Assembly (NCBI GenBank): GCA_964187785.1
Contig: OZ076409.1
Span: forward strand, 49,478,001 to 49,542,000
Direction: 5' to 3'
DNA length: 64,000 nt
Source of the DNA: Amphiscolops sp. MND2022
Lineage: Eukaryota
The notes below the pieces were generated by a model. The model was not told the DNA's origin. It searched no databases and saw only the letters and a program-made list of their open reading frames with translations. Shown one piece after another: positions 1,924 through 64,000 of this stretch (within the stretch, counting starts at the first letter, position 1; each line of letters begins with the position of its first letter). The translations under genes and the position numbers were made by a program.

Positions 1924-2064
1924 GGATGATATGAAAAATGACAAAAGTTTCATCTTTTCAGTTTCACAGGGGAGTACAAAACAACTCTATGGCCGCCATA
2001 GAGTTGTTTTGTACTCCCCTGTGAAACTGAAAAGATGAAACTTTTGTCATTTTTCATATCATCC
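1924..2064. repeat. Perfect inverted repeat (70-bp arms, 1-nt centre)
   Basis: ggatgatatgaaaaatgac...ctctatggc-c-gccatagag...gtcatttttcatatcatcc reads the same on both strands around position 1994. Confidence 0.95.
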
Positions 2065-7609: not shown

Positions 7610-7863
7610 AAAAACCTGGCTGCATTTTTTTGAGACTCATAAATCCGTTGCTCAAAATTGAAGTCCTAGGATTAATAATAATTTCAGCGCCTTGTTGAAG
7701 AACTTTCCACCTTTGCCGAGCGTCTTATCATAAAAATTTTTATGATAAGACGCTCGGCAAAGGTGGAAAGTTCTTCAACAAGGCGCTGAAATTATTATTA
7801 ATCCTAGGACTTCAATTTTGAGCAACGGATTTATGAGTCTCAAAAAAATGCAGCCAGGTTTTT
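7610..7863. repeat. Perfect 254-bp palindrome (127-bp arms, no spacer)
   Basis: Centre cataaaaa|tttttatg at 7736/7737. Arms are complementary out to aaaaacctggc...gccaggttttt. A partial third copy of the arm lies at about 8126-8190. Confidence 0.95.
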
Positions 7864-9376: not shown

Positions 9377-11473
9377 TGTCACGACCCGCTCCCGGTCGGG
9401 ATTATTCTTGCTGCAGTGGCGTGCCGGGATTCAAAAGGGGGAGAGGACACGGAAGGCCTAAGCAAAGCTAAGTAAAATACTGAACTTACCTTGTCTAAAC
9501 TACAGCACGAACTAAGGATTAACGGAAGCGCAACGTGAAATATCCAAAAATGATCTTGAGCAAAATAGGATTTCTGATTTAAAGTTTTCACATGTAATCA
9601 CTTTACTACATCCGGTTTTGTTTCTGAAAAATCCATGACAATCTAAATACTAAAAAGAAACATTCATAACACTGTGATCAATTCTCGTCCTCTCCACACT
9701 GAAATGAAAACATTAGTTAATACCGTGGTCCCAACGGAATGCATGTGATCTAAAATAAGGAAAATACAGAGAGAATTTAATAGACTTGTTTCCAAAGTCT
9801 GAAGTAGTTGTTAAAAGCCACTCAAATTACAGTCAAGTAATTTGAATAAACCTTTACAACGCTATGGCAACGTCAATCAGATAAACAAGTTGCTAGTATT
9901 CCTAATTTAATGAACCAATAGCGTCGCTGCTAAGGACGGAATGTTTGCGCTCGAGCTAGTAAGGACCATTCTAATGACGTCATTAAGAACGAATTTAAAG
10001 ATGGCGAATTGCTCCGCTCTAACTTCGCTAGCTACTAAGCTAATCTTAATACGTACGTAGCATCTACGGGACGAATTGTAAGCTAAAGAAACTATAGCTA
10101 ATCTTAATACGTACGTGACATCTACGGGGAAGATTGTAACTTGGCAAAACTATACTTAATGTTAATACATGCAAAATAACTGTGGAAAAATCTGAGACTT
10201 AGGGACTAATGCAGTATATCAGGACATTCCTTGGAACACGTAGAATTTTGTTAGGACAACCAAAATATTGTAGGATTCAATTATTTCCTCCCGATTTTCC
10301 TCTGTTCTTTAAGCAATCTAAACGTTCGTGCTGTAGGACCAAGGCAAAAGTGAATTTCTTAATGGAAGGTGCTTTTCTTACTTTTAAGAAAATGATTTAC
10401 GTACTCAGTACGTCTTAAAATGTTGTTGCTTTCCACGTTGTTTGTTATTTTGTAACCATGTTTGATAGTATCATGTAAAAATCACGCAGGTTTATCGTTG
10501 CCAATTTCTGGTTTATAATAACCAAATTTCAGTTTGTATTCGTCACTTTCTCGGTATCATTTGTTCCTTATCAAACATTTGATTTCAGTAATCCAAAAAC
10601 TTAACCGAAATATTTCCGTGACGAATTTCACTTGTTACTTTGTTGCTGCAAGTTGAAAATCTTGCCGCTCATAAGATGAATCATTGTTCATGCCCGCGTG
10701 CCTTTCGTGATGGAAGTTTAACTAGACATTTATTTTACCGCTCTTTTGAGATTAAACCGGAAATGAGGATGATGAACAAAAATGAATTCAACAAGTACTC
10801 CGCAAAAGGGACGTGACTAGGAATTTTAAATTATGAACAACTAGTTAAAGGGTTGAAATAATAAGGATGACTAAGTGATTTTTATGAACAAAATGGATTT
10901 TTAGGATTCCTAGGAATTTTTAGGTGAGGAACAAATGATGCTGAGAAGGTATATATAGTTGTAGATACTTTGAAAAATCAATCCAATCTTTTGTTTCCCA
11001 ATTAATCAATTTGTTCTGTTGATACAATAAAGCTCGCTTCTTCGACGAATTAACATATTTCCGAAGACTTCTCTACCATAAACTTTCAAAGATGACTACT
11101 AGAAGCCAGAAAAGAAAAGCGGTTGAAGAATTAGTCTCTACTGAAATCGAAACACCGGTTCCAGAAATTAGTCTGAGCGAAAATCCCGTAGCGGGAACAA
11201 GCAAATCTCCTAGAGTCATTTCTGAAAACCTAGAAAATATTAAATCGGCTCTTAGAAAAGAGATAATGACTGATCTTACTAAAATCTTAGCCGAGAACCA
11301 GAAGGAGATGCTAAAACTGATAGCTCCAGTAACTAAAAAACAAACCCTAGTTAGAGCTTCTGAAGAAACTGATTCTGATCCCGAGGACATCCCGGAAAAT
11401 GCAACATCAACACCTATAAAAACCAAATCCACTGCGACTACTAATAGGATTACCCCGGTAAATAGTCGTAACA
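9377..11473 (+). repeat. 5' LTR (2097 bp)
   Basis: TG...CA ends with an 8/9 inverted repeat; matches 23210-25306. Contains about 59-bp tandem units (10038-10175), TATATATA at 10950, AATAAA at 11026 and the gag ATG at 11092. Confidence 0.97.
10950..11031 (+). promoter_or_regulatory. Putative LTR TATA box and polyadenylation signal (U3/R/U5 boundary region)
   Basis: TATATATA at 10950-10957 followed about 70 nt later by AATAAA at 11026-11031. The same order occurs in the third element (62359 and 62376). Confidence 0.6.
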
Positions 11474-12504
11474 TGGTGACAGGAGTCCTCAATGACTCAA
11501 CGAACCTCGGAAAGAAGAAAACACGACCGCATCGCCCACAAAGTTTGCCACCCAACGAACGGCCTTCGACATCACGCCTACTCTTCGCTCCCCAACCGGA
11601 AATACACCAGCTGCCACACCTACCCCCAATGCCCAAAGCACTCACTGCATCATTGCCCGTATTCGATGGTAAGTCAGAAAAATTCGAACTTTTCGAGGAC
11701 TTATTCCGGAACAACATAAAAATGTACCCACACCTAACAGAAATTCAAAAAATCAACTATTTCCACTCACTGCTACGAGGCAATGCACTACAAGCATATT
11801 GCAACTTAGACGATGCCAAAAAAGATAACTTAGAGGAGGTAATTACGGCGTTTAAACGGCGCTTCGGAGATTTTCAATCTTCTGCCAAAGCGAGATGCGA
11901 ATGGGACTCGCTACATTTTGACCCAACCAAACAAAAATTACATGAATTTTTGGATACACTGCAAAAAACGGCTAAAGAAGCGTTCGGCTCTGAAGCACAA
12001 AAATTTATAGACAAGGCCATATACGCCAAAATGCCAGACCACGTCAAAAAGATCCTCAACCGAGCCTACCTCGAGGACAAACCCTATAATGATATTGTCC
12101 TACATCTCGAACGAGAGATGCGCCTTAACGGTCTAGGAGCCCCAGACGAAACCACACTAGTACCACTAAATACGGTCGACGTCGTCCCATCGGAACCAAA
12201 AAAGGAACTCACCCAACGAGGAAGTTGCTTCCACTGTGGTAAACAAGGACACTATAAAGCACAATGCCGCAAATTAAGAAAAGATCGTTACTATGAAACT
12301 AAAACACAGAACGCTGTCCCCAAAACCATTGAACCACCCAAACCAAAGTGCGACACTTGCGGGAAGCTCCACAAAACCGAGAACTGCTGGTACGGAGCTA
12401 ATGCGGCGAATGACCCCAGGAAGAAACGTCATGAATTCACAATACCCACTAGCCAAATCAGCGAACAACCAATCCCCACTGTTGAAATTCAGTCAAAAAA
12501 CTAA
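11092..12504 (+). CDS. gag: Gag polyprotein (470 aa); first 127 codons lie inside the 5' LTR
   Basis: Capsid-like LPVFDGKSEKFELFEDLF...LRGNAL region, CCHC knuckle CFHCGKQGHYKAQC and a second knuckle CDTCGKLHKTENC; lies directly upstream of pol. Confidence 0.95.
   Translation: MTTRSQKRKAVEELVSTEIETPVPEISLSENPVAGTSKSPRVISENLENIKSALRKEIMTDLTKILAENQKEMLKLIAPVTKKQTLVRASEETDSDPEDIPENATSTPIKTKSTATTNRITPVNSRNMVTGVLNDSTNLGKKKTRPHRPQSLPPNERPSTSRLLFAPQPEIHQLPHLPPMPKALTASLPVFDGKSEKFELFEDLFRNNIKMYPHLTEIQKINYFHSLLRGNALQAYCNLDDAKKDNLEEVITAFKRRFGDFQSSAKARCEWDSLHFDPTKQKLHEFLDTLQKTAKEAFGSEAQKFIDKAIYAKMPDHVKKILNRAYLEDKPYNDIVLHLEREMRLNGLGAPDETTLVPLNTVDVVPSEPKKELTQRGSCFHCGKQGHYKAQCRKLRKDRYYETKTQNAVPKTIEPPKPKCDTCGKLHKTENCWYGANAANDPRKKRHEFTIPTSQISEQPIPTVEIQSKN
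11474..11488 (+). promoter_or_regulatory. Primer-binding site (probably complementary to a tRNA-Leu)
   Basis: TGGTGACAGGAGTCC immediately after the LTR-terminal CA; an identical 15-mer occurs at 62733. The tRNA-Leu assignment is inferred from resemblance to known Leu acceptor ends. Confidence 0.8.
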
Positions 12505-12548
12505 AAACGCCGCGCCTCCGCTTCGGGGAAACGGTAGACGCGAGGGCG
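12495..12548 (+). promoter_or_regulatory. -1 ribosomal frameshift signal (A_AAA_AAC plus GC-rich stem-loop)
   Basis: Heptamer at 12495-12501 directly before the gag TAA. The -1 frame is open from there into pol. Downstream cgccgcgcctccg-cttcgg-...cggtagacgcgagggcg can fold into a hairpin. Confidence 0.85.
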
Positions 12549-12590
12549 TACACAATAGAAGACCCCCCAAATCGCTATGAAGAAGACTTC

Positions 12591-15500
12591 ATGACAGAAT
12601 GCAACGAAGAACCGACACAGGACTGGCAACGTCGTTGGAACGTAGGCATGATCCTCAGACACAATGCACGACACCCAGAAGACCCAACACCACTACCCCA
12701 ATGGATAACAGAATCGCCTGATAACTACGCGACACTAAAAAGACCCCTACCAGAATCAAAGACCGAACGCATCTACATATATGACAAAGACTACAGATGT
12801 GACCCCTGGGATGAACCAGCCATCTATGACACAAACAAACTCTCTTTTAAGATCCAAGTTTCAAATCCTCAAGCTCAAGTTACCGAGAGTACAACCCTAC
12901 CAACACCTTTGTCACCAATCCTAAAAAAGACGTCACAGTCCTCGCCAGTACCCGTCACCACCACGTACACACCAATAGATGCAGAGAATATTATCTGCAT
13001 CGAAGACAAAACAATATGGTCACAACAAGCAAAAGAACAACGAGGAGTAGCTGACCAAACAGTTTCACCCCCAACAACAACATCTGAATGGCCAAATCAG
13101 AACAACAACCACGAAGACGACGAAGTAACGGAATGCCCACAACAACTGCCATACGATCTCAACATCATAAGAGAATTCATACAACATGATAAAGATGACG
13201 ACTACATTCCGTTAATGTCGGCAATTACCCTCAAAAAGAAGAAAAGAATGCTCTTTATTCCTCTCGACTTTGAAAACACTAGAATTGATGCATTAGTCGA
13301 CTCGGGAGCCTACATCAACGTCATCAGTGAAAGAGATGCAGACAAGATACAAACTGAAGCCAACGCAACCATAATCGCGAAAGCACCTCCGCCCCCTTTC
13401 AAGATACAATATGCCAATACAGAACTCGAAAAAGCCCGTGCAACATACACAATGCAATTCAAAATCGGGGATTACGCGTTCGAGGAGACTTTCATCATCA
13501 TGACCAAAACCTCCTACCCAATCATTGGCCTGGCATTTCTCCGGAAACATTCCGCAATCCTAGACACTGCACAAGGAACAATAGACTTTCCCAAAATACA
13601 AATCACTCTAGCCCTAAAAGATGAAAGACAGAAGTGTAATCCCAAACCCATCACTATCAAAACGGAAGAAAAACACACCATACCAGCACAAGCCACGCGG
13701 ATTATCCACGCGTCCATCACTGCAAGCAACGACCACTCAATAACTGGGACAGTTCAACCCCTACCGCAGTTCGACGAAAATGCAAAACTTATAGTAGCCC
13801 CAGCAATAACAACAGCCCGAGACAAACGAGTAGCAATAAAAATAGCGAACACCACAGATTTCCCCTATACAATAACGCCACATACGAAACTAGCAGAATT
13901 ACAAATACTGAAACCCGAAGAAACGAAACTAATACGAGCAGTAGACATAGCAGCCCTCAATCTACTTACCGAACATGACGACGTTGTTGCGTACGTTAAT
14001 GCACTCATGCAAGTTGATTCGTCAGACCAAACAGAAGAGAAATTCTGGTTTCCAACACCTGAAAATCCCGGAGACGAATCGGAACACACACCCATCCAGC
14101 AACGCATTCTACGAGAACTACGCGAACTACAAAGACTAGAAGAACTGGACCCCAAACAAGATGAAAAATCTAGAACACAATTCCTCTCGCTATTTAAATG
14201 GAATGATTCACTAATAACGGGAGAGGACCGCGAAAATCTAGAGTCCACATTAGTCGAATTCAATGACATTTTTGCACGTCACCGACTAGATATCGGAATG
14301 AACAACCAGTTCAAGGTATCCCTAACTCCCAAAAACGACAAACCGGTATATACACAGAGTCTCCCCGTACCCATCAACCTCAAAGACGACCTCACAGTAG
14401 AATTGGCACTGATGCACAAATACGGGATCATCACAACCCTCCCATTCTCGAAATATGCCAGCCCCATCTTCGCGCAACGCAAACCCAACGGAAAACTACG
14501 GCTCCTAGTAGACTTACGGAAAATCAACGCCCTCATCTCAGATGACTACATAAATAACAACCACCCCATCAGCACCCTCTCGGACGCCGCGCAACATCTA
14601 GCAGGAAAGCAACTGTTCTGCAAACTAGACTGCTCACAAGCCTATCACTGCCTCCAAATGGCAGATCAAAGGTCAGTAGAACTCCTTGCATTTAATTTTG
14701 CTAGTAGAACGTTTGCCTATCGTAGGCTAGCCCAAGGCCTTAGTAGAGCCTTGTCAGCTTTTTCGAGCTTCATGCGGGAATACCTCGACACCGTCATCAA
14801 AGCAGACCAGTGTGCCCAATACGTAGACGACATCGGAATTGCCGCCAACACAACGGAACAACTCATCAAGAATATCAGAGCAGTCTTCAAATGCATCCGC
14901 AAGGCAGGACTAAAACTCACAATTGAAAAATGCCACTTTGGTGTCACCCAAATCGAATTCCTAGGGAGAACCATCACACCCCACGGAGTAGCTCCGCAAG
15001 AACACAAAATCACCAACTTCTTATCAAAAATCAGATTTCCCCGGTCAAAGAAACAAGTCCAGAAATACATTGGATTCATCAACTACTACCGAAACTACAT
15101 ACCAAGACTGTCTGAAAAAATGATTGGGATGTATGAACTCCTAAAAGCAGATGCCAAAATCACCATATCAGAAGAATTAGTCGACAACTTCAAAGCCATC
15201 AACGCGAGCCTAGCGGAAGCATGTGGGTTAGCCCTCAGACAACCAGTTGCGGGAAAACAATACGTACTAATGACGGACGCAAGCTTCCGGGCATCAGGTT
15301 ACGCCCTGATGATAGAAGAAAACGACGATAAAAAGCTACTCTCCAAACGGAAAACTTTCGCACCGGTCGCTTTCGGCTCCCGCGTATTCTCGCCGTCACA
15401 ACTGAAGATGTCGATATACTGTAAAGAATTCCTCGCAATATATCATGCATTCCTCGAATATAGTCACATTCTCTGGGAAACAACACTACCTACACTAGTA

Positions 15501-17711
15501 CTGACAGACAACAGGTCAGTAACGAGATTTTTCCAGACGAAAACAACGCCACCCGCTCTCTGGAATGCCTGTGACTACGTACTACAGTTCAAATTTCGCA
15601 TCATGCACGTAGCTGGCTCGCAAAATACAGCAGCTGATTTCCTGTCTCGCCTCGAATTAACTCCAAAAGAGAGAATCCAACTCAAATTGAGAGACGACAT
15701 CATAACAGCACCCATCGAGGTTAACCTACAGTCTACAGATGTTGCAGACGAAGAACAACTCTTTTTCCTACCAGACGAAGAAGAGGAATCAGAACAAGAA
15801 ATTTTCGCCAGGAAAGCCCTTAGCAAACAACGAGCAATAGACGAAAAGGAACAACAAAACTTGACAACGGAAGTCACTGAAACAGTACACATACCTCTCA
15901 ACTCAGCAGTATACGCTTTTGGAGCCATCAAGGAAAACGCCCGCATCCGCAACGAACAAGACGCAGACCCGATATTGAAAGCATTGAAACTACGGCTGCT
16001 TCACGAAGAATACGACAAACACCTTCTCAAGACAGAACCCAGAGGACGAAACCTACTACGTCACGAAGAAAGAATAATAGTCAAAGACGGAGTACTCATG
16101 CGTAAATACTACGGACAAGATGGCACAGTAACACATCACCAAATCCTCATACCAAAACATATAGTGCCAGAACTCCTATCGACACTACATGGAAAAATGA
16201 ACAAACACCCAGGAATAACCAAAATGATTCAGGAAAGCCGAGCAAAGTACTACTATCCGGGACTAGCGCGGAAAATTAGAGCCTGGGTAATCAACTGCCC
16301 AGATTGCATCGCCAACAAACGAATTGACACGCGCCAAATACGCCCTAAAATGCTGAGTAACACAGAATTCACATTCGGACCAGAAGATTGCCTAGAAGTC
16401 GATATACTACCAAATCTACCCTCATCAAACGGCTACAAACACATCGTAACCATGATGGATGTTTTCTCCCGTTATTTATTCGCATACCCCACTCAAGACA
16501 TGACAGCCAGAACAGTCGGCCGATGCATAATTGACGTTATGACGCGTCATTGTTATCTGCCTACAGTGATGCTAACTGATAAGGGATCACAATTCCGATC
16601 AGATGTAGTAAATCAAATTGCACAGACACTTGACATCCGGATCAGCCACGCGTCAACAAAGCATGCACAAACAATCGGCATACTCGAAAGAACGCATGCA
16701 TCTCTGAAGACTTCCCTCAAGATATCAACGGGAGAACGCCGCTCAATGTGGCACAAATACGTTCAAATTGCAGTCATGAATTACAACACTAGCTACCACG
16801 AGAGCCTAGGATGTGAACCAACAACCGTATTTCACGGACGCATCCCGTACAACATTCTGGACATCAAGCTGGGACTCAAGCCAGAATGGAAAAAAGATGC
16901 CAACGAAGACCTAACGGACGAACTACAGAAGCAAATCGCTGAAATCCACCAGGCAGCCAAGGACAACCTCATGCAATCATATTTGAAGTACAAGCGATAT
17001 TATGATAAAAAAGCGACAGCAACGCCATTGAAAATCAATGACTATTGCTACGTCCTGAACCCGAAGGCTGATAACCAGTCAATAAAATTCGCTTTCAAAG
17101 ATTGCATTTGGACAGGACCATATATAGTGGTCAAAGTCCTTTCCAATAACAATTACGTCGTAAGACGGACAGGAACTAGATATACGCAAACCCTCCATAG
17201 AATTCGCCTAAGGCTATATGCGCCCAATCAACGAGTACCTGACGTAACAGTCAAAGTGGAAGATCAACTTCCAGATCCCGAGGTTAAAACAACCCATGAT
17301 GATTGGTACGCGCAAGCTTGGGAAACCGAATTCGGAGAAGTTCTGTTCGGAACCCCAACGGAAAACGACAATGAAGAAGCTACTATCACGGAAGTACAAA
17401 ATGCAGACGGAGATACAACGGACCATGAAACAGCTACAACAACTGCAGATGAGAATACAATGATGGATAAAACATCCTCCGGAGATAACACGTCATTCAA
17501 TTTAGACGTCAGTGATAACCCTTTCATAATGACCCCGCCGCCTACAGAAAGTCCCCCAATACCGCCTACATTGCCGCCTATAGTTGTCGGATACAATCCT
17601 AGAAAAACGGGAAGATATAACCTACGACCTAATCCTAGACCTAATGCACACCCTGATTTTCGGATGCTCGACGCTATCACTACGGAAGAGAATTCTCAAC
17701 CTCAACACTGA
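12591..17711 (+). CDS. pol: Pol polyprotein (protease, RT, RNase H, integrase); probably expressed as a Gag-Pol frameshift fusion from about 12498
   Basis: Uninterrupted 1706-aa ORF with ALVDSGA (protease), YVDDI (RT), LMTDAS (RNase H), HHCC zinc finger H..HPG...CPDC, integrase core EVDIL/TDKGSQF/GILER, and a WTGPY motif. Confidence 0.98.
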   Translation: MTECNEEPTQDWQRRWNVGMILRHNARHPEDPTPLPQWITESPDNYATLKRPLPESKTERIYIYDKDYRCDPWDEPAIYDTNKLSFKIQVSNPQAQVTESTTLPTPLSPILKKTSQSSPVPVTTTYTPIDAENIICIEDKTIWSQQAKEQRGVADQTVSPPTTTSEWPNQNNNHEDDEVTECPQQLPYDLNIIREFIQHDKDDDYIPLMSAITLKKKKRMLFIPLDFENTRIDALVDSGAYINVISERDADKIQTEANATIIAKAPPPPFKIQYANTELEKARATYTMQFKIGDYAFEETFIIMTKTSYPIIGLAFLRKHSAILDTAQGTIDFPKIQITLALKDERQKCNPKPITIKTEEKHTIPAQATRIIHASITASNDHSITGTVQPLPQFDENAKLIVAPAITTARDKRVAIKIANTTDFPYTITPHTKLAELQILKPEETKLIRAVDIAALNLLTEHDDVVAYVNALMQVDSSDQTEEKFWFPTPENPGDESEHTPIQQRILRELRELQRLEELDPKQDEKSRTQFLSLFKWNDSLITGEDRENLESTLVEFNDIFARHRLDIGMNNQFKVSLTPKNDKPVYTQSLPVPINLKDDLTVELALMHKYGIITTLPFSKYASPIFAQRKPNGKLRLLVDLRKINALISDDYINNNHPISTLSDAAQHLAGKQLFCKLDCSQAYHCLQMADQRSVELLAFNFASRTFAYRRLAQGLSRALSAFSSFMREYLDTVIKADQCAQYVDDIGIAANTTEQLIKNIRAVFKCIRKAGLKLTIEKCHFGVTQIEFLGRTITPHGVAPQEHKITNFLSKIRFPRSKKQVQKYIGFINYYRNYIPRLSEKMIGMYELLKADAKITISEELVDNFKAINASLAEACGLALRQPVAGKQYVLMTDASFRASGYALMIEENDDKKLLSKRKTFAPVAFGSRVFSPSQLKMSIYCKEFLAIYHAFLEYSHILWETTLPTLVLTDNRSVTRFFQTKTTPPALWNACDYVLQFKFRIMHVAGSQNTAADFLSRLELTPKERIQLKLRDDIITAPIEVNLQSTDVADEEQLFFLPDEEEESEQEIFARKALSKQRAIDEKEQQNLTTEVTETVHIPLNSAVYAFGAIKENARIRNEQDADPILKALKLRLLHEEYDKHLLKTEPRGRNLLRHEERIIVKDGVLMRKYYGQDGTVTHHQILIPKHIVPELLSTLHGKMNKHPGITKMIQESRAKYYYPGLARKIRAWVINCPDCIANKRIDTRQIRPKMLSNTEFTFGPEDCLEVDILPNLPSSNGYKHIVTMMDVFSRYLFAYPTQDMTARTVGRCIIDVMTRHCYLPTVMLTDKGSQFRSDVVNQIAQTLDIRISHASTKHAQTIGILERTHASLKTSLKISTGERRSMWHKYVQIAVMNYNTSYHESLGCEPTTVFHGRIPYNILDIKLGLKPEWKKDANEDLTDELQKQIAEIHQAAKDNLMQSYLKYKRYYDKKATATPLKINDYCYVLNPKADNQSIKFAFKDCIWTGPYIVVKVLSNNNYVVRRTGTRYTQTLHRIRLRLYAPNQRVPDVTVKVEDQLPDPEVKTTHDDWYAQAWETEFGEVLFGTPTENDNEEATITEVQNADGDTTDHETATTTADENTMMDKTSSGDNTSFNLDVSDNPFIMTPPPTESPPIPPTLPPIVVGYNPRKTGRYNLRPNPRPNAHPDFRMLDAITTEENSQPQH

Positions 17712-17913
17712 ATAAAAACGATCAGAGAACCAAACCGAACCGGAGTGGCAACGGTAAATTTTCAACTCATAACTAAGCTACGCAAAACAATTGGACAACC
17801 AAGGTGCCCCGAAAGAATAAATCAAAGCATCACACAAGGCAGAGCCAAATAAATAAATAAAGCATCAAGAAACAACTCAACATCAAATCAACGATATCAT
17901 AGCATTATCTGTT

Positions 17914-20900
17914 TCATGGCTTTCCCAGTTTGTGAACGACGTCTGGATCACAGATATCACCTTTTTTGTTCTTCTTAGACCCCTTTGAACCACCAGCCCT
18001 GCTCTGTTTTGATGAAGCTGCTCCACTTCCTTTATCGCTACCTTTAACAGCCGGACGAACAACGGGCACATCCGCCTTCACAAATTTTGTAACTGATGGC
18101 TTATTGGTCGACTTCCTCGAACTAGCAACAGAACTCGCCACACTTCCAACCTCAGTTGAACTAGAACAATGTCTTTCACGAGCACTTCGATTCGCTTTGT
18201 TTGACTCCACATAAAATGCCTCGCACTCCTTCCGTCGCTCCGAGACATGACGACAATACAGCGATTCATAATGTTTAATGAACGCATCCATATCGCCCAC
18301 GCAGAAATCCCTCCACACGTCAAAGTCAGTAACCCTGAAGAAGTCACCAGCATTCAGAAGAGCATCACGGATAGCGGACAGGAGTGAACCAGAAAAGAAT
18401 AACCGAGCATTAAAACTAGGCCCGATAATATGGGATTGCACCATCAAAATGCACTCTTGCAGAACAGACGACTTCAGCGTGCTACCACCCAAATCTATCG
18501 TCACAGCAGGAGGGTCACTCTTCGGCAATCCAACGAAAAGGCAACATAACTTGAATAGCCGAAATACGTGGACTCGGGACTGAAATGCAAAATCCCGCAA
18601 CAGGAAACTAATGACATCATCAATGTCACTCGCAGCACACGTAGCATCCTCGTGATGTCGCCGTTTCTCAATGACATAACTTTTAAACTCAGCAGAAGCA
18701 GCATTCAAATCGTCCGGTGTCATAACACGACAAGATCTCAACAAATCACAGAGGGAACCAAACAATTCGAATATGTGAAGATCATCGCCCTCCAACATAA
18801 TTTCAGGACAGAAGCTGTAGAGTCCGCGAGAAATACCAGAAGTAACAGCAGTGCTTGTCACAATTAGTGAGACAACACGATCAATACATTCACGACACTT
18901 CACCCGAAAATCTTGCACGTCGCCAGTCTTGATTGCAGACAATCCTCGCCCAAACTCACTATGCATTAAGAATTCGCTCATAGAAATCTGATCGAACCCA
19001 GAGAGTTTTGAAACATCCATATAACTCTCCCACTCATGTATCCCAGGCAAACTGGACAACTTGCGAGTCCGCATCAGGAGGCAATAAACGAAGTTACAGA
19101 CCTCGCCGTAACCATGGAAGGCGTAATCTTTACGGCCTTGACGAAGCTTCTCAAAGTTGAAGTAATCTAAAACGAAACACCCTCGTCAACAAACACACAT
19201 CTTGCCTCCAGGACACAGCAATCAACAGAAATTGAACGCAATAGCACCAACACAATAAAGAAAGCCAATCAACAAAAGACAACAGCCAATTGAAAGACCA
19301 TACTCCTAACGAAACGTCTCCGTACTTACAAGAATCCAACAGCAGCCGAAGGAAGCCAAAGCGATGCACAATGAGACTGTCGGAGACCAACTCGAAGTCC
19401 GTACCACGCAACTGAAATAAATAACACACCATCAAAATCAAATAGCAAAAGAGGAAGACAAGCAACTATAACCGAAGAAAAAAAAAACACGGAAACACGA
19501 AGATCGAACGGAAAAACAACCAAGAAAATTACAATGTAACAGCACTCACACGATCAACGGTACTCTTGAAATGCGGATGTCCCGTGTACCGAATGAAGGG
19601 ACGTATGGAAGGCCACAGCTCAATCAGATCACTTAAGATCTCCCGCAAGTCGCAAAAGGCCACAGAACCCGCACGTATGGTTGCACGCAGAAGAGGCTTG
19701 TCCTCGCTCCAGTCTTCATACAGAGCCCCTTTCAACCGATGGATTATATACTCCACTGCTGTTGTTATCTCAATCATTCCGAAAATATCCTGGTGAGCTT
19801 GGCGAAAGCACTGCAAAAACACCTCTTCATCAAAGGACTGCCAAGACACAAAGCGACGATCATCAGTTCTCCCTGCGTCCAGCACCCGAAACAGCGAAGG
19901 ACTGGCACCACAAATAGATACGGGCATCTGTTGCCCCTCCAAGCAGTTCACAACTCGGGCCAACGGAAGCAATTCAGGGGCAGGCATCCTTTGGTCGAGA
20001 GTCTCATTGCCCACACAAATCTTTTTCAAAACAAGCCCGTCCCAGCACAGAACATAGCACCGTTCGACATGACCAGACTTCTCAAATTGCACCCCGTACT
20101 CCTTAAAGGCCTTGATGTTGCTAATCATCAGCCGAAGAACCCGAGGGGCCAGCCCTTGACAAAGAAACGACTAAAATACGTACAACCGACCTCACTCCCA
20201 AATTACTGAAAATCATCATCCCTCCCCCACACGAACAAACTACGAAATTAAACTGGCGTAAAAAGAAGGAAAGAAACGAAAAAGAAGAGAAAACAACAGA
20301 CTAACCACAGTCTCCGAACGGCTCCAACGCAAAGGAAAACACGGCTCCCGTTCGCCCAAAGTTGCACAAAAATGGCCCCACAGACGACGAAGGTAGTCGA
20401 AGTCGCCACCATTACGAAGAAACTCGAAAAAGCAGGAAACCAGGGTCATGAAGGGCACATTTGAATCAGGCTTAGAGTGTTTGGGAACCAAGTCTTCTGG
20501 AAATGGGTACTCTTCACCCAGGTCACAAAAGGGCCGTGACTTGTAATCCGCCAGCTGTCTCTCTGACAATTCCATTGGTTCCATCAAACGGTTCAAAACT
20601 TGCAACCCCATGTGGACGCGATAGGTTACGTCTTTGAACCAATGGGCATCTGATTGGAAATGCCTCCTGAACTCGCCAACGCCCTGGGACTTCATGGCTA
20701 CATCACGTTGACAGACTCGACAATTGAAGTGGGTTCCCACACCCTTTTTGGAGCCCGTCACAAAATCGGGGAAGGCAGGATGACGACTCAACATCCGACG
20801 ATGGAGTATGTTGCGACTACCATACGTCTTCACCACTTTCTTCGTCAATTTTTTCTCGACCCTTCCGCTGAACTCCTGCAACTCTGTAAAACAAAATACA

Positions 20901-22031
20901 AAAATAGGCGCACAGATGAAACCCAAATTCCGAACCACACAACTGCCCGCAACAGCGTAGCCACCGAACACACACCGTTCAACCGAAAACCAAAAAATAC
21001 TAACCATTCTGGATAGCCAAACTGGTACCCTCCTTCACTTCTTCCACTAGCCGTTGACCAAGGCGTACCACGTCCTGAGGACTTAACATCACACCACCAG
21101 AGCGATACAGCTGCTCCTCATCGTTACCTGAAACAACAACGGATGTTTAATGGCAACTTAGAGAGAATATCACCCACCCGAAAAGTTCCTGACAAAATAT
21201 GACAAACTATTCCCTTTTTTCTTCTTCCTTCCTCCAGCACCACAGAGGCAAACCAAACAACAAATGCGAAAAACAACACACTAACTAAGCCAGTTACCAG
21301 CAGCATTCATCAATGGTGGAGGAGACGGTGGCAATAACACAACCTTCTTCCCACGTTTTGAAGGCGTAACGTCACCAACAGAAGCGTCAGCCGAATTATC
21401 TCCGCGCAGAACTATAATATCAAATATACTCTGGTGCTACCACCTACATGACGTAAACATGACGCCAAAAGCAAACCTCACCAACCTGTTTTCCTCTTGC
21501 TGGGGGGATCTGTCTCACCTCCTTGAGACTCACTATCGCTGCTAGTAGCGACAACAAGGCGAGTAACAGGACTACTAGTCTCGGGGAGAGTATTGGCAAC
21601 TTGAGGAGAAACCTCAGAGCAAGAAGCGACAACTCCGGAAGCACACAATACACTGGTCAACGCATCATTGACGCTGCAAGTAGACTTGGGCGGCAGAATA
21701 GTTGAAACCGACGGCAAAACATTAGCAACAGTGGAAGATACGCCCGTAGCAGGCACGGAAACAGTCACTGTCGGGATGCCAGGTTGAGCTACTGAAAATC
21801 AAGATCTGGTTTGACGCGTCAGGGTTACGGGTAAAAGACTACAAAAGGCTGATCACCAAAAGAATAGTCAAAATACCCATGAAAGTCAGAAAGATTTTAC
21901 CAACCTGAAGAAGTAATAACAGCATCTACATCTGAGAAAACCACATCATCATCAGTATAGCAGAAATTTGTCTCGTTTCCACTCACAGTACCAGCGACTG
22001 CACCAGATGAAGGAACAACAGCGTCGTCCAT
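17914..22031 (-). CDS. Antisense gene with 8 coding exons inside the retrotransposon; predicted 1067-aa hAT-transposase-like zinc-finger protein, probably catalytically inactive
   Basis: Coding exons (minus strand): 22031-21905, 21791-21486, 21411-21298, 21127-21005, 20883-20306, 20170-19550, 19411-19330, 19166-17914. Seven GT-AG introns of 74-170 nt with pyrimidine-rich acceptors, all phase-compatible, give 3204 nt (1067 aa plus stop). Contains a CRVC...H...H zinc finger and hAT-like motif order. Confidence 0.85.
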
Positions 22032-22593
22032 AACTCGGAAGATTACAGAAGTCTTCAAGAGAATCTGAAAAAGAAGAAAACAAATAATCAAAGAAAAGAA
22101 AAGGAGAAAACTACGTCGTGCTCCCGTAAAATTTTGGAAAAAATAACAACATCATCCCTGTGTGACTAAAGAAATGTACATATTTTAAACTTCAGTAAAT
22201 GCCCATTGCGGCACCGACGGGACAAAACGTTCCCACAAAAAATGCCACTGAAGAATCTAAATTCACCAGGAAGTTCTGAAGGAAAGCTTAACAAACTAAA
22301 ATTTACGAAAGATAGACGTTATTCTACCTAAAAGAAATGAATGATGTCATTGAACCGATGACCGAAAAGGAAACAGATACTAAATTAGAAGAGTTTTCCT
22401 AAAGCTACAACCAATCGCAGCGAAAGCGGAGAGGAAACGGCTCACCGAATTAGGTCGGACCGAAACGAAAATAAAAAATCAACCAATAGGATTGCAGCAC
22501 GAGGTACGAAAAGAAGATCACCAAACGGTCATTTGTCGTATAACTTTACAAAGAACAGCTTGTTCAGCTAAAAATCTCTACCAAACTATCGAA

Positions 22594-23304
22594 ATGGAAA
22601 GTTTTCATCAACGAAGCATCATCGACATTTCGTCTGATGAAGAAGCCACTCCGTTGCAGCAGAGTACTCCAATCAAGTACTACCCTTTAAACGTAGTGCA
22701 AGCCCTCAATTTGAGCGAAGAATCAACGACGGCTAAAATGGGAAGTGAATCCAGCATGGACATAACAGCGTCGACATTTGAGTCCGGCCCCTCCCCGTAT
22801 AAAAGAATCACTTTCTCAGCCACACGTGACGAAGAAAGAGAAGAATTCTCTGTGGAAAGGCCGCCGATAACAAACTCCGAATCAAGTTTTTATGAAGAAC
22901 TCGAGTCGTCTGATGAAATGCCCCGCCTAACTCCCGCACCCACTCTGAGAGAGGTGACGAATACGTCCCAAGAGGATTACGTCCCCCCTCCGAAGACGAC
23001 TAAACTAAATGATTTAGAAGAACTATCTGAAAATGAATTGGAAGACATCTGGGGTTTGAAGCCTAACGAGGATGACTTCTACTCGCTAGCTGGACGCGGT
23101 AGCAGCTTTACATCGAAAAAACTACAAAGGAACATCAGACAACCCGTGACGGTAGTGAAAGAAATTCCTCACTGCTCTGGTCTGCCAGCTTTTCGCGCCA
23201 GAGGGGCCCTGTCACGACCCGCTCCCGGTCGGGATTATTCTTGCTGCAGTGGCGTGCCGGGATTCAAAAGGGGGAGAGGACACGGAAGGCCTAAGCAAAG
23301 CTAA
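22594..23304 (+). CDS. Accessory ORF (236 aa from ATG 22594); acidic and S/T/P-rich, SIM-like IIDISSDEE, basic C-terminus encoded by the 3' LTR
   Basis: Long ORF in an otherwise stop-rich area; it crosses the PPT and the LTR start at 23210. The ATG context resembles that of gag. Confidence 0.6.
   Translation: MESFHQRSIIDISSDEEATPLQQSTPIKYYPLNVVQALNLSEESTTAKMGSESSMDITASTFESGPSPYKRITFSATRDEEREEFSVERPPITNSESSFYEELESSDEMPRLTPAPTLREVTNTSQEDYVPPPKTTKLNDLEELSENELEDIWGLKPNEDDFYSLAGRGSSFTSKKLQRNIRQPVTVVKEIPHCSGLPAFRARGALSRPAPGRDYSCCSGVPGFKRGRGHGRPKQS
23199..23209 (+). other. Polypurine-tract-like sequence
   Basis: cagaggggccc immediately upstream of the TG of the 3' LTR; short for a PPT. Confidence 0.55.
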
Positions 23305-25306
23305 GTAAAATACTGAACTTACCTTGTCTAAACTACAGCACGAACTAAGGATTAACGGAAGCGCAACGTGAAATATCCAAAAATGATCTTGAGCAAAATA
23401 GGATTTCTGATTTAAAGTTTTCACATGTAATCACTTTACTACATCCGGTTTTGTTTCTGAAAAATCCATGACAATCTAAATACTAAAAAGAAACATTCAT
23501 AACACTGTGATCAATTCTCGTCCTCTCCACACTGAAATGAAAACATTAGTTAATACCGTGGTCCCAACGGAATGCATGTGATCTAAAATAAGGAAAATAC
23601 AGAGAGAATTTAATAGACTTGTTTCCAAAGTCTGAAGTAGTTGTTAAAAGCCACTCAAATTACAGTCAAGTAATTTGAATAAACCTTTACAACGCTATGG
23701 CAACGTCAATCAGATAAACAAGTTGCTAGTATTCCTAATTTAATGAACCAATAGCGTCGCTGCTAAGGACGGAATGTTTGCGCTCGAGCTAGTAAGGACC
23801 ATTCTAATGACGTCATTAAGAACGAATTTAAAGATGGCGAATTGCTCCGCTCTAACTTCGCTAGCTACTAAGCTAATCTTAATACGTACGTAGCATCTAC
23901 GGGACGAATTGTAAGCTAAAGAAACTATAGCTAATCTTAATACGTACGTGACATCTACGGGGAAGATTGTAACTTGGCAAAACTATACTTAATGTTAATA
24001 CATGCAAAATAACTGTGGAAAAATCTGAGACTTAGGGACTAATGCAGTATATCAGGACATTCCTTGGAACACGTAGAATTTTGTTAGGACAACCAAAATA
24101 TTGTAGGATTCAATTATTTCCTCCCGATTTTCCTCTGTTCTTTAAGCAATCTAAACGTTCGTGCTGTAGGACCAAGGCAAAAGTGAATTTCTTAATGGAA
24201 GGTGCTTTTCTTACTTTTAAGAAAATGATTTACGTACTCAGTACGTCTTAAAATGTTGTTGCTTTCCACGTTGTTTGTTATTTTGTAACCATGTTTGATA
24301 GTATCATGTAAAAATCACGCAGGTTTATCGTTGCCAATTTCTGGTTTATAATAACCAAATTTCAGTTTGTATTCGTCACTTTCTCGGTATCATTTGTTCC
24401 TTATCAAACATTTGATTTCAGTAATCCAAAAACTTAACCGAAATATTTCCGTGACGAATTTCACTTGTTACTTTGTTGCTGCAAGTTGAAAATCTTGCCG
24501 CTCATAAGATGAATCATTGTTCATGCCCGCGTGCCTTTCGTGATGGAAGTTTAACTAGATATTTATTTTACCGCTCTTTTGAGATTAAACCGGAAATGAG
24601 GATGATGAACAAAAATGAATTCAACAAGTACTCCGCAAAAGGGACGTGACTAGGAATTTTAAATTATGAACAACTAGTTAAAGGGTTGAAATAATAAGGA
24701 TGACTAAGTGATTTTTATGAACAAAATGGATTTTTAGGATTCCTAGGAATTTTTAGGTGAGGAACAAATGATGCTGAGAAGGTATATATAGTTGTAGATA
24801 CTTTGAAAAATCAATCCAATCTTTTGTTTCCCAATTAATCAATTTGTTCTGTTGATACAATAAAGCTCGCTTCTTCAACGAATTAACATATTTCCGAAGA
24901 CTTCTCTACCATAAACTTTCAAAGATGACTACTAGAAGCCAGAAAAGAAAAGCGGTTGAAGAATTAGTCTCTACTGAAATCGAAACACCGGTTCCAGAAA
25001 TTAGTCTGAGCGAAAATCCCGTAGCGGGAACAAGCAAATCTCCTAGAGTCATTTCTGAAAACCTAGAAAATATTAAATCGGCTCTTAGAAAAGAGATAAT
25101 GACTGATCTTACTAAAATCTTAGCCGAGAACCAGAAGGAGATGCTAAAACTGATAGCTCCAGTAACTAAAAAACAAACCCTAGTTAGAGCTTCTGAAGAA
25201 ACTGATTCTGATCCCGAGGACATCCCGGAAAATGCAACATCAACACCTATAAAAACCAAATCCACTGCGACTACTAATAGGATTACCCCGGTAAATAGTC
25301 GTAACA
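23210..25306 (+). repeat. 3' LTR (2097 bp)
   Basis: Copy of 9377-11473. I noticed only two substitutions by eye (actagaC/Tattt and cttcG/Aacg). Followed by the TSD AGGGT. Confidence 0.97.
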
Positions 25307-25416
25307 AGGGTATCTCTTTGATTTTTTTCAGGTACTGTGCGACATTTTTTGATTTTTTTGTCTCACCTTCAAATTTTCAAATATTTTGCAACAAACTGGA
25401 GTTTCCAAAAGCCTAA
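24925..25416 (+). other. Chimeric ORF: 127 Gag N-terminal codons from the 3' LTR fused to 36 codons of flanking DNA
   Basis: Identical to Gag up to ...PVNSRN, then diverges exactly at the LTR end (25306). Confidence 0.8.
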
Positions 25417-25599: not shown

Positions 25600-26830
25600 G
25601 ACGTACCCGTTTCAAAATCCCTTTCTCTTAAAAGCAAGCTCCCAGCTATATTCTATATTTCCGGGATGACCCTGTCATTCATAACAGAACTAATTGCTCT
25701 ATTAATTTACTATGCATCATGCTCACCAATGAATACAACTCTTGAGAGAATCTTAAGTTCATATAACCGGATGATATGTCCATAGAATCTCCAAGTCTAT
25801 CCGGTCCAGAGGTATCATTCCTGCTTCCCATATTCTTTATTTCGTTTTCTTGAGATGAGTTTCTTATATGTGTGAGAATAGCATCATAGTCTTCCTGTCC
25901 AGAAGGTCCTCTCATTCTGTTTTCTAGTTCTCTCTCAATTGAATTTGAGTTGTTCTCCCCGTACTGAGACTCCATGGCATTCCATCCATGGCCATGGATG
26001 GTCCAGGCCTGGCCACCAATGGATCCAATTTGTAGGTGGTCATTGCAAATTCCATCGATGGCCATGGATGGTACATGGATGGTCCACCACTGGCCATCGA
26101 TGGAGTTTCGAAAAATTTTTCGAACAAAAATTCGTTCGAAGTGCGAAAATTCGAAATGTACGTTAGTAAATGCAAAATTTGAGTTGGCGAGTCACTCTGT
26201 AATAGAGAATGTCATTATAATGGATTTTTTCCTTGAACTCGTTCCTTGCTAGCTTCTCCAGTGTCGACAGTGTACTTTTTACCGGGCGTTTTAGAGAAAA
26301 ATGCCTTTATCATAGTTCCGATTATAGTTTTGAATGGAACTCATGAGATGCAATACTGATTTTTAAAGTTTTCATTTCAGTTTCTGACTAGGGCATTGCA
26401 GCGTTTTAATCTTACGTTGATTCAAAGACGACTCAAAATTTCAGAAAACGGAGCTTCTGTAAGCTGTTTTGAGCTTTCCGGACTTTTGGTTTCCAGGCCT
26501 GGCCAGGGATGGTCCATCCCTGGCCAGGGATAAAAGTGGCGATTGCCATCCCTGGTCCATCCATGGACCAGGCCTGGCCAGGGATGGAACTGCCATGGAC
26601 CATCCATGGCCATGGATGGAATGCCATGGAGTCTCAGTACGGGTCTGATAACATAATATCCTTATTTTCGTAGTTGGACAAGATGTCCTTCTCTCTAGAG
26701 CGTCTTGCTCTAGCCTTTTGTTTTGTTGTCGAAGTTTTCCTTTTTCAGATTAACAAAATGTTTTGAAAACATTTTAACCGTAAATTTGGTTACAATCACA
26801 GCGACAATAATCTCAATGGTGTCTTACCTC
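25600..26830 (-). pseudogene. Decayed coding-like sequence interrupted by the MITE; possibly the Gag N-terminus of another LTR element
   Basis: Removing the MITE joins ...KARARRSREKDILSNYENKDIML to ENNSNSIERE...SQEL.SLVSMMHS/INRAISSVMNDRVIPEI, with stops and frameshifts. Confidence 0.35.
25958..26643. mobile_element. Non-autonomous DNA transposon (MITE) with CCC...GGG termini, CMC/EnSpm-like
   Basis: Long TIRs cccgtactgagactccatggcattccatccatggccatggatggtcca and its reverse complement at the right end; subterminal ccatgg/ggatgg repeats; apparent 2-bp TSD tc. Confidence 0.8.
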
Positions 26831-40066: not shown

Positions 40067-43000
40067 TGTCGCATGACGTCACTTCATGCAATACTTTACG
40101 TGTATACTAAAAATAGGAGCAGTATCAATTTAGTACTTGTCAACAACGCTACTACTCAATAATGTGCTGACCTACTCATTAATCTTTGAATACTTTTATT
40201 GAACAGAATAGACTCTTACAGCGCTTCCTTTGTTTCCTTATCTTATACATTCACAAGATACAACATGGCGCAGTAGCAAGATGGACAATCAAAAAGCAAC
40301 AGAGAGCACAGGCTCTTCAAGCGGAGAAATCTCCAAAAGAACAAACTCAAAACCCGAAAAGACACACCAAAAGATCACGCTACCAACATTTGGAAAACGC
40401 GGGATATAGGAGGCGAAGATATGGTGGAGACAATTCACGCAGTATACTGAAATGACCCAAAGTAACGATCTCAACGGAATGACAACAGACCGCGAAATAT
40501 TACGAAACTACAGGGATGATCTGAAACACCGGATCAAAGATTTATTCACTTGGGCACTGGGCGAGTCAGCAATAACGGAGATGACAGGAACCGTTAGAGA
40601 CAACGACGCATATCGAATGGACATTATTCAATTATATTCGCTGTTCCAGTTACATTTCATACCGGAACGAAACAAATTCCACAGTAGAGCAGACTTCTTT
40701 GGGATAACAAGAGAAAAACTTGAAACAGCAGAAGACGTATGGACGAGAATACTAAAGGTGGAAAAGAACTGCGAATTCGAGAATGTAACACCAGCAGAAT
40801 TGTTAGCATCAAAAATCCTATCTGTAATCGGCAGATCAACAGGCGATTATGAACTAAAAAAGTAAATTCGAAAAAGCGACATTACGGTCGAAACAATAAG
40901 AGCCTTGATACATGAACACTTGTATGACCGATTAAATGATTCAAACAATTCGAACGACGGAAGGGAATAAAAACCCGTACAAGAACGACCGTACAAACGA
41001 AAATGGACGGACAAAACCCGATGCAGAAAGATCAAAGAAATGGCCGAAATGTCAAAAAAAGCCAAAAGATATCCGACGTGGACAGTGCGGGGCACCAAAC
41101 TGGTCGAGACAGCACATTTGTCCAGCAAAAATGGCAGAGTGCGGAAATTGCAAAAGGAGAGGCCATTACAAAAAAATGTGCAGATGGAACGAGTAAAATA
41201 CAATAATAAAACAACATCATCGGCAGAAAAAGATAACTGGGAATACGATAGAATTCAAAGAATAGATAACACAAAACAGAAGAAAAGCTTTTACAATGCC
41301 ACACTATTGGTGAACAATGTATCAATCAAATTTATTATTGACAGCGGCTCACCAGTTACACTCATTCCAGAATGCCTTTTTAACAAAATTACACCAATTG
41401 AACCACTCAAGACCACTTATATGGATGTAAACTATCAAAAGAATAATTTCATAGGCCAGACGAAAGCTACGGTCAAAACAAACCAAGAACTAATCGAACT
41501 ACCATTATTAATTACAAAGGCACAAACGGCCCCGCTAATGGGATTGGACTGGATGCAACGGCTGAAAACTTGAGTTCAAACAACGACGCAATTCAAAATC
41601 ACAACATAGAACTTCACAACACGGAAGGAAGGATTATAAAACTTCAGAACAACATCGAAGATTCACTTTCCAACAATAAACAGATAAACAGTCTCTCGGT
41701 CAAAATAAATCTGAAAGCCGGAGCATATATAATACAACAAAACAGACGACCAATCGCAATACATTTCCAAGACCAGGTGGCACAAGAGCTAAAACGCCTA
41801 ATAAAACAAAGTTATGTGGAAAGAAGAACAGAAATTACCGAAGATTGCTTTGTAAGCACCGCAGTGATAACAATGAAGAAAGACAAGTCTGTAAAATTTG
41901 CTCCCGATTCTAGAAAACTAAACGAGATCACAGTGAAGAGAAAAGCACAAATGCCAAATATGGAAGAATTGATATCACGAATGTCGAGAAAAAACTCTGA
42001 AGGATCAGACGTCGAAATCTTAGCAACAAAACTCGATCTCATTTTTCGATTGTGCATACGGACAAATCAAGCTCGACGAAAATACAAAAAACGTATGCAT
42101 AATTACCGTAACGGGAGGAGATTTTACAAGATATTACCGTTTCCTGAAAGGCTTTCACGGACTGGCCGATTTTCCATCAAAATTCCAAGAACGGATAGAC
42201 ACAACACTGCAGCACAAACACCCGGCCTGGCTAGATGACACAATAATAGTCACCATAGAAAACATGGACAAACGCGAAGCGGAAGTATAAGAAACAATAA
42301 CCAAACTGGAACGCGAACGGATCAGATTGAGAGTGTGAACAGAAATTCAACCAATCAGCATCAAGCAAAGCGAACGAACCGAAGTCAAAAGCGAACAAAA
42401 CAAACAAGTGCAGTTCGTTGCTACCTCAGCTTAATACAGTCGATCAAAATACAAATAACATTTAGCAAACCAACCACGAAACGACAATGGACATTCGTCG
42501 CATTGAACAAATGGAACCAACGATCCATCGGAAGAAACTTTACAACTAACAAACCGTTGGAAAGAAATGGTAAAACCCGGAGAATACCGAACATCTAATG
42601 GAGTCTGCAAGAAGTACAATCCGCCAAGACATCACAGAGCAGAAATCAAACAAATCGAAATGAACCTAAGTCAAAGAAATAATAGACTGCTCTGGAACCG
42701 CATGAAAATACAAGATAAAGAACCAGAGGAAGGCACCACACGAAGAGAAGAACTAAACAGAGTGATAGAAAAAAATAGAAACATGCCTCAAAAACAAAAA
42801 CAAAACAACCAGGAACAAGCGACGGCACACAAGATGTAGAAAGCCCACCGGAGACAATTGAGACAGAATCAACAAGTTTCGTTGAATCATTCGGCGTCAC
42901 AGCAATCAACTTCAAAAAATACCCCATGACAACCGGTGTGAGGTATACTCAGAAGGAACGAGCCAATCGCACCCAAAATGAAAATAAATGGGACTTGGGG

Positions 43001-62154: not shown

Positions 62155-62408
62155 GCATTATGTTCATATTCGGCATTGATGCTAATTAACACCTGTTAGT
62201 GAGGGCAATACGATTGGTTGATACAAAAGGTGTCAAGACGCCGGGACCAGCAAGGCGTCGACACCAGAGAGGTCACAATTACGGAGATATCCATACTGCA
62301 TAGTTGACTACTTTGACTTGTTGAATTTTACTTAGAATTACATTAACCTTTTCGTGATTATAAATATTGTTACACAATAAACCTTCAAAATCCCATCATT
62401 TTGTTTAT

Positions 62409-63946: not shown

Positions 63947-64000
63947 AGCCACGTCATCCGAACGACTACTACAACTACAATGTGCGCAACAAAAACACTC

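Follow-up and report, generated by a model that had tools for sequence, protein, structure and literature searches.

The intact Ty3/gypsy LTR retrotransposon analysed here carries an antisense gene downstream of pol whose product very probably descends, remotely, from a hAT DNA transposase, and this gene is a fixed part of the element family. It is under purifying selection and is swapped between elements independently of pol and LTR. We give about an even chance to the reading that this protein, derived from a domesticated hAT, binds DNA or chromatin without cutting and, working in trans, helps the elements of the family to escape silencing.

The element occupies positions 9377-25306 of the window, that is, of the whole 64-kb stretch of DNA that was analysed (Table 1). 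It is assigned to Ty3/gypsy by its LTRs with TG...CA ends, its target site duplication, its gag and the order of the Pfam domains in pol (PR-RT-RH-IN). The two LTRs are 99.9% identical, differing at 2 positions, and the 5-bp duplication AGGGT stands on either side of the element. The gag and pol frames are both open, and the primer-binding site begins with TGG. In the 1.07-Gb assembly that was searched the family is large and young, with numerous full-length pol frames. The exact core motif of the 58-bp repeat of the LTR is present in 7 of 20 LTR stretches. Rfam gave no match across 17500-25400, and no tRNA gene was found in the 64-kb window.

Table 1. Window positions of the retrotransposon, its antisense gene and the neighbouring features.
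Feature	Position	Strand	Description
5' LTR	9377..11473	+	2097 bp, TG...CA, TSD AGGGT before it; 2 mismatches to the 3' LTR
gag	11092..12504	+	DUF1759, Retrotrans_gag, zf-CCHC; start inside the 5' LTR
pol	12486..17711	+	Protease, RT, RNase H, integrase; Ty3/gypsy Pfam set and order
Exon 8	17914..19166	-	Remaining hAT-like insertion domain; degenerate C-terminal region without ER.FS
Exon 7	19330..19411	-	Antisense gene
Exon 6	19550..20170	-	RNase H-like strands 1-3, the first Asp strand reading YGVQFEKS; beginning of the insertion domain
Exon 5	20306..20883	-	C-x2-C-x16-H-x5-H zinc finger; hAT-like DNA-binding/dimer helices, end WSRSETV
Exon 4	21005..21127	-	Predicted; matched in 14/20 copies
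Exon 3	21298..21411	-	Predicted; weakly conserved; matched in 6/20 copies
Exon 2	21486..21791	-	Predicted; Ser/Thr/Val-rich; matched in 12/20 copies
Intron 1 element	21779..21911	-	Intron 21792-21904 with exon edges; conserved non-coding; predicted long hairpin over both splice sites
Exon 1	21905..22031	-	Predicted; ATG at 22031; matched in 19/20 copies
Second accessory ORF	22594..23304	+	236 aa, acidic/Ser/Pro-rich, conserved [VI]IDISSDE
3' LTR	23210..25306	+	2097 bp, then TSD AGGGT
58-bp tandem repeat in LTR	23867..24001, also 10034-10168	+	Part alignable at 76-88% in many subfamilies

The antisense gene is read on the minus strand from 22031 to 17914, its eight exons comprising 3204 nt, i.e. 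1067 amino acids and a stop. All donors are GT, the acceptors are CAG or TAG, the phases are consistent and there is no internal stop, in agreement with the intact 1067-aa spliced frame of an earlier note made on this DNA, whose quoted peptides are all found at their minus-strand positions. The span given in that note, 17914..20883, is right for exons 5-8; four more exons lie upstream of it, to 22031. These exons 1-4 are predictions, made from their splice signals and from conservation that is only partial. For exons 5-8 the joins have independent backing from collinear relatives without introns, which match exon 5 (hhalign 99.4%), exon 6 (98.0%) and exon 8 (E 1e-28). One such relative, P0128, is a single frame of 890 aa collinear with exons 5, 6 and 8, and it led to 30 further intronless proteins. 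Of 1.84 billion protein clusters, 766 matched the exon 8 profile at E <= 0.001 (the best 150 of these were listed), and no longer forms of exon 8 turned up in a word-index search. Exon 6 has a Phe at the W319 position, and exon 8 ends with a low-complexity basic tail followed by the stop.

The likeness to hAT transposases was found with a group that we call here the HGG-finger/RTK subgroup. Its members, which carry PF05699, were fetched by what we take to be their HGG finger and RTK motif, a choice that favours a match at the finger. Profile-profile alignment of the antisense family with this group is collinear from the finger to the late insertion domain (hhalign 91.5%, E 8.4e-7, score 65.7, 460 columns; 107 of 159 family rows and 58 hAT rows after redundancy filtering), the reversed template scoring 18.4 and 30 block shuffles at most 33.0. 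An earlier run gave 87.5% and E 3.6e-6; all these E-values are pairwise, against a single template. Six sub-regions were also aligned separately, and four of them match in order, namely the finger (E 1.8e-4), the dimer region with strand 1 (7e-4), the insertion (3.5e-3) and the late insertion (0.028). With the equivalent of the whole exon 8 the E-value was 0.014; the central part of the RNase H core (0.26) yielded no match. The finger spacing 2-16-5 is kept in 20/21 and 20/22 family rows; it occurs in 24 of 70 HGG hAT rows, which are all the rows retaining a finger, and in none of 5 Ac-type rows. Pfam zf-BED does not match the family.

Two further methods are independent of the choice of templates. 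The ESM Atlas gave matches to exon 8 at 0.93-0.94, with 23 of 30 in Dimer_Tnp_hAT clusters and with only 148-169 shared features. VIA aligned the exon 6 model, in which a three-strand meander is predicted, with residues 281-347 of Hermes (8edg_A; Z 4.6, rmsd 2.6, 59 residues); the match tied for first among 48,161 chains, at a Z within the range that VIA calls common. The Atlas is also the one method that suggests the C-terminal dimerisation domain proposed in the earlier note: the domain gave no stand-alone hhalign match, and PF05699 no match in Pfam. The low-confidence exon 8 model gave helical hairpins only in VIA, Hermes not being among the matches. Pfam hAT families did not match single exons, 67 aligned members, 28 database relatives or the intronless proteins; the PDB gave no match by sequence or by profile, and Foldseek none with the AlphaFold models of exons 6 and 8, which are of low confidence (pLDDT 62 and 54). 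The hhalign probability varies with the profile, falling to 14.5% for a trimmed core and to 2.9% for intronless rows only, and the window-lineage profiles of exon 6 or exon 8 alone do not clearly beat their reversed controls. Thus the hAT-collinear scaffold that had been read by eye is supported for the stretch that begins at the finger and closes with the insertion domain, as a remote likeness to the HGG/RTK subgroup; it is not seen by Pfam, with Ac-type hATs or by Foldseek. Of the profile and structure comparisons proposed earlier, profile-profile alignment gave a collinear match and VIA, within its common range, a match at the Hermes insertion domain; Pfam, Foldseek and the PDB gave none. 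Free hATs with full motifs occur in this genome, and neither Ac-type nor other hATs of it are detected by the family profiles. No HGG-type hAT, and so no donor, was found here by one exact motif, and PF14291 matched nowhere.

hAT catalysis is described as requiring both the catalytic triad and the CxxH motif, the latter for hairpin formation (PMC4763223). In the antisense family no DDE triad is conserved throughout. The column of the first Asp holds Glu in 24/25 window-lineage rows and is non-acidic in 22/22 intronless rows. The second Asp falls on a Gly/Ala/Cys column when placed by eye from strand lengths; in the hhalign placement the column is acidic in 25/25 window-lineage and at least 17/22 intronless rows. 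Residues 655-674 contain no acid column common to both lineages. No conserved C or H is found at the expected place of CxxH in either lineage. The RW motif is lost, Arg being replaced by P/S or D/A/E/N and Trp by Phe in 17/22 and 24/25 rows, and ER.FS is absent, the expected stretch being proline-rich. Since the tests for triad, CxxH, RW and TIR all fail, the protein cannot be counted among the active hAT transposases. Judging from these residues, it is in all likelihood catalytically dead, although some weak metal binding may be conceivable in the window lineage, given its Glu at the first position and the acidic second position of the hhalign placement. The earlier reading of CxxH, RW and ER.FS as lost thus agrees with the family rows. 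Its description of the DDE residues as replaced applies to the triad of the family as a whole and needs correction at the first position, where the window lineage has a conserved Glu.

The antisense gene is a fixed component of its family of elements. Exon 8 was found in antisense at all of the best 30 loci picked by integrase or pol, and pol lies on the opposite strand at 42 of 44 loci picked by the gene; of the two exceptions one is a tandem duplication and the other a truncated copy beside gag. In the genome, exons 8 and 6 have matches in many subfamilies at 60-100% identity (best 100 of 7374 and best 150 of 6055, respectively). Counted by eye, 79 of the 100 best exon 8 matches are stop-free, and the copies have saturated silent sites while their proteins are still 45-86% identical, which means that the antisense frame is not due to chance. 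The intronless lineage is present in the same genome as well, and in both elements examined the gene has the same place, antisense after pol. The pol of these elements is 50-52% identical to that of the window, and their own LTRs are 99.8-99.9% identical. P0128 has no scored match above 53% in this genome, so the gene family may extend to another host. With respect to the window copy dN/dS is 0.06-0.25 wherever dS is finite, and the median values for pairs with dS 0.15-1.5 are 0.14, 0.12 and 0.19 for exons 5, 6 and 8 (6 of 190, 13 of 300 and 9 of 210 pairs, respectively); only open-frame copies were used in both estimates.

The base composition of the gene is that of a retroelement. Read on the plus strand, its fourfold sites have A 37, C 29 and T 15%, as compared with A 44, C 27 and T 14 in pol and A 31, C 18 and T 32 in the flanks. 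Its introns share the A/C-rich, T-poor plus-strand bias of pol, from which five free hATs and the flanks differ. No inverted repeat of 11 bp or longer joins the two sides of the gene (17701-17930 vs 22031-23209); this comparison gave one 10-mer and nine shared 8-mers, which is about the level of chance. A 10-bp inverted match at 17906/22370 was considered as a TIR and rejected on the same ground. Hence the absence of TIRs in the flanks, the strand bias and the long residence in the element, all proposed in the earlier note, are borne out, the last by the pol-picked copies and by the intronless relatives at about 50% pol identity.

The gene is exchanged between elements. Among 20 elements chosen for gene diversity, U3 distance correlates with integrase distance (rho 0.78) and exon 6 distance with exon 8 distance (0.71), whereas the correlation of the gene with U3 or integrase is only 0.00-0.12. 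Separately, these values are 0.03 and 0.12 for U3 (-0.04 and 0.05 after removal of close pairs) and 0.00-0.02 for integrase. The integrase tree and the exon 6 tree disagree (23 of 25 rows kept). In eight of the 20 elements identity to the window DNA is 86-94% through pol and falls within about 50-110 bp past the pol stop, and in three copies pol 3' DNA is 99% identical while the exon 8 protein is only 37-38% identical. Template switching is probably the simplest cause of the exchange. Exchange without regard to pol or LTR speaks against a protein matched to the LTR variant of its own element; it agrees with a trans-acting factor that has a shared or host target.

Intron 1, together with its edges, is aligned at 78-93% across subfamilies with saturated exon silent sites. 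The predicted hairpin has folding z of -2.5 on the minus strand and -1.7 on the plus strand, and compensatory changes are few (6 cells, in 2 of 33 pairs). The intron 1 element could function in RNA, as a switch or packaging signal, or else as a site on DNA.

These observations can be joined in the following model. An ancestral gypsy element would have gained the gene of an HGG-finger/RTK hAT transposase, inserted in antisense between pol and the 3' LTR. TIRs and cutting motifs would then have been lost, and the zinc finger and the helical scaffold retained under purifying selection, the element itself having been the domesticator. With the gene in antisense, its introns would be copied intact, i.e. 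unspliced, into the genomic RNA, and expression would have to come from a minus-strand transcript of its own, with a promoter probably in 22031-22594 or in the 3' LTR. The protein, presumably expressed and able to bind DNA, would work in the nucleus, where it would bind DNA or chromatin without cutting and, in trans, help the family to evade host silencing; the counter-silencing role itself we propose tentatively, as somewhat short of probable. Any variant of the gene would be compatible with any pol or LTR variant, so that elements could trade the cassette, with template switching between genomes packaged together as the probable route.

Several other explanations have to be weighed against this model. 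That the gene is an ordinary active or recently nested hAT transposon, as its intact frame and the free full-motif hATs of this genome might suggest, can hardly be maintained: the gene is found in 30/30 sister copies and in distant elements, it has no TIR, CxxH, RW and ER.FS are gone, and its silent sites have the strand bias of the retroelement. The comparison of sister copies that the earlier note had proposed therefore rules out a nested DNA transposon. The protein could also be unrelated to hATs and consist of a generic C2H2 finger followed by helices, or belong to another CxxH-type superfamily (P, MULE). The lack of matches in Pfam, PDB profiles and Foldseek is in line with this, as are the unmatched Ac-type hATs and the leads from the ESM Atlas for exon 6, which point weakly (0.76-0.80) to P-element-like RNase H clusters. 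We nevertheless find such an origin improbable, since four regions align in order to one hAT subgroup, the finger spacing is exact, and the hAT matches of the Atlas (exon 8) and the Hermes match (exon 6) do not depend on the choice of templates.

Other alternatives concern the function. A sequence-specific activator of the element's own LTR variant, co-evolving with a U3 site in a strict VANC-like or Tat-like pairing, would account for the retained finger and for the LTR repeat with its partly conserved core, but the gene does not follow U3 (rho 0.03 and 0.12), while U3 follows integrase (0.78). Of the roles suggested in the earlier note, LTR trans-activation is thus argued against where it concerns the element's own LTR variant, and such pairing has little probability; binding to one invariant LTR motif may still be compatible with the lack of U3 correlation. 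It is unlikely, though somewhat less so, that the protein is an integration-site tether or a pre-integration chaperone which binds chromatin or cDNA ends and steers or imports the integrase complex. The finger and transposase scaffold kept under selection, the basic C-terminal tail and the presence of the gene in every pol-picked copy agree with this role, yet a partner of integrase might be expected to co-travel with it, which the gene does not do (rho 0.00-0.02); this objection is a weak one as integrase is 89-99% conserved. We also consider doubtful a self-limiting repressor or splicing switch, in which the protein or the antisense transcript restrains its own element and the intron 1 hairpin sets the output. 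The conservation of intron 1 and its fold over both splice sites amid saturated exon silent sites speak for it, and regulation by antisense RNA is discussed for plant elements (PMC7264820). On the other hand, this is a large, young family in which full-length pol frames are numerous, the compensatory changes are few, and the hairpin could act on the genomic strand instead.

The nearest known proteins are the HGG-finger/RTK hATs (L143, L181, L195 and L168, with PF05699, and relatives with PF14291 and PF27073). They share with the antisense protein the C-x2-C-x16-H-x5-H finger, the collinear dimer helices, the first RNase H strand, the insertion domain and an aromatic residue at the W319 position. 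The antisense protein differs from them in having only ~16% identity, ~60 extra residues after the finger, additional N-terminal exons and a tail, and its gene in lacking CxxH, RW, ER.FS and TIRs and in being housed in an LTR element. The gene falls under the definition of an aORF-3R (antisense additional ORF). As in the antisense ORFs of plant and fungal gypsy elements (Grande gene23, RIRE2, Retand, PvRetro13 and Boty), it is conserved, lies between pol and the 3' LTR and is present in most copies (PMC7264820). In that source those ORFs are presumed to be nuclear and regulatory, their function is described as unknown, the origin of most of them is likewise called unknown, and a TE origin is given as unsupported. 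Some nevertheless bear transposase-named Pfam domains (PMC7264820; PMC11728184), 'transposase 28' being the sole Pfam domain of Retand ORF4 (PMC7264820). Unlike these ORFs, the present gene contains seven introns, encodes a hAT scaffold of nearly full length and is exchanged as a cassette. The VANC proteins of MULEs and the PMD proteins encoded by plant gypsy elements resemble it as accessory chromatin-related proteins captured and kept by a transposon, counter-silencing being shown for VANC and proposed for PMD (PMC13547354, PMC5418596). Their fold is unrelated, derived from MAIN/PMD and not from a transposase, and VANC is described as sequence-specific and co-evolving with its targets (PMC13547354, PMC5418596), whereas the antisense gene does not track LTR type. 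Co-variation of the VANC kind with a cognate target is absent with respect to U3, and intron 1 is nearly invariant. DAYSLEEPER/SLEEPER, an example of host-domesticated hAT proteins, is similarly a hAT without transposition residues or flanking hAT features and under selection (PMC3499209); it is a fixed host gene, in contrast to the multi-copy, mobile gene described here, whose domesticating host would be a retrotransposon.

A search of the literature at the level of titles and abstracts gave no account of an LTR retrotransposon that had domesticated a hAT transposase. Among antisense accessory genes the present one has a probable Class II origin: it would be a Class I element, and not the host, that domesticated a Class II transposase. 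Such genes have long been noted as a puzzle in LTR retrotransposons, with neither an established origin nor an established function, and this case gives one of them an origin that can be traced. The family is also a natural experiment, with near-identical pol backbones that carry very different versions of the gene in many young copies; expression, chromatin state and insertion sites can be compared across the versions with no more than genome and transcriptome data. Should the role prove to be counter-silencing, transposon-encoded anti-silencing proteins would extend beyond the VANC system of plants.

A second accessory ORF, on the sense strand, lies head to head with the antisense gene, its last 94 bp being inside the 3' LTR. 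A frame of at least 150 aa is present in 18/20 copies, and [VI]IDISSDE is kept in 20/21. This peptide resembles what we take to be the consensus of a SUMO-interaction motif (SIM). It is possible, though rather unlikely, that the domesticated hAT gene is an exchangeable counter-defence cassette: its non-cutting product would bind family DNA or chromatin and, jointly with a SIM-mimic ORF, block small-RNA-guided, SUMO-dependent silencing, the intron 1 hairpin would gate expression, and variants would circulate among sister elements like arms-race alleles. An arms race would be expected to show positive selection, and the selection measured here is purifying. In the piRNA silencing of Drosophila, SetDB1 is recruited through SUMO-SIM contacts (10.1101/533091). 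The neighbouring ORF with its SIM-like motif was counted in favour of the trans-acting anti-silencing factor. Against a counter-silencing link between the two genes, the ORF travels with integrase (rho 0.76) and not with the antisense gene (-0.09). Two elements of the intronless lineage have a similarly placed ORF without [VI]IDISSDE.

The core of the antisense gene is a single frame in the lineage of the related elements L103-L108, L120 and L122, and it is divided by three introns in the lineage of the window. As antisense introns survive the reverse transcription of genomic RNA, the introns of this gene appear to have been gained or lost within a retroelement. Intron 1 together with its exon edges (window 21779-21911) is conserved far above the silent sites of the exons. 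A hairpin spanning both splice sites is predicted for this region, which contains the palindrome TGACGCGTCA and has no match in Rfam.

Comparison with the related element L023 (G000:C2:6961000-6970999) demonstrates 96-97% identity to the window in U3 and the antisense exons and only 89% in the integrase DNA. This discrepancy indicates that the exchange between elements extends to pol segments as well. In L024 and L073 the antisense gene is partly duplicated in tandem within single elements. Ac-type hAT transposases are also encoded in the genome by several long open frames (L087-L091) with DDE, CxxH-like and RW motifs; none of these frames is close to the antisense gene.

The start of gag lies ~380 bp inside the 5' LTR (overlap 11092-11473), so the primer-binding site falls in the gag frame and the gag start is present again in the 3' LTR. 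The latter is entered for 94 bp by the Arg/Gly-rich end of a conserved sense ORF. This ORF and the antisense gene are arranged head to head, with 562 bp between them. Outside the element, the 686-bp stretch resembles a non-autonomous DNA element of small size, and both A-rich stretches are probably further retroelements.

Sense ORF of the element and features outside it (window coordinates)
Feature	Position	Strand	Details
Conserved sense ORF	22594-23304	+	[VI]IDISSDE motif resembling a SUMO-interaction motif (SIM); Arg/Gly-rich end
Perfect palindrome	7610-7863		127-bp arms; outside element
Perfect palindrome	1924-2064		70-bp arms; outside element
686-bp stretch	25958-26643		Perfect 48-bp inverted repeats at both ends; internal repeats CCATGG-rich
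A-rich stretch	40071-45103	+	Flanked by 190-bp direct repeats, 87% identity
A-rich stretch	62000-64000	+
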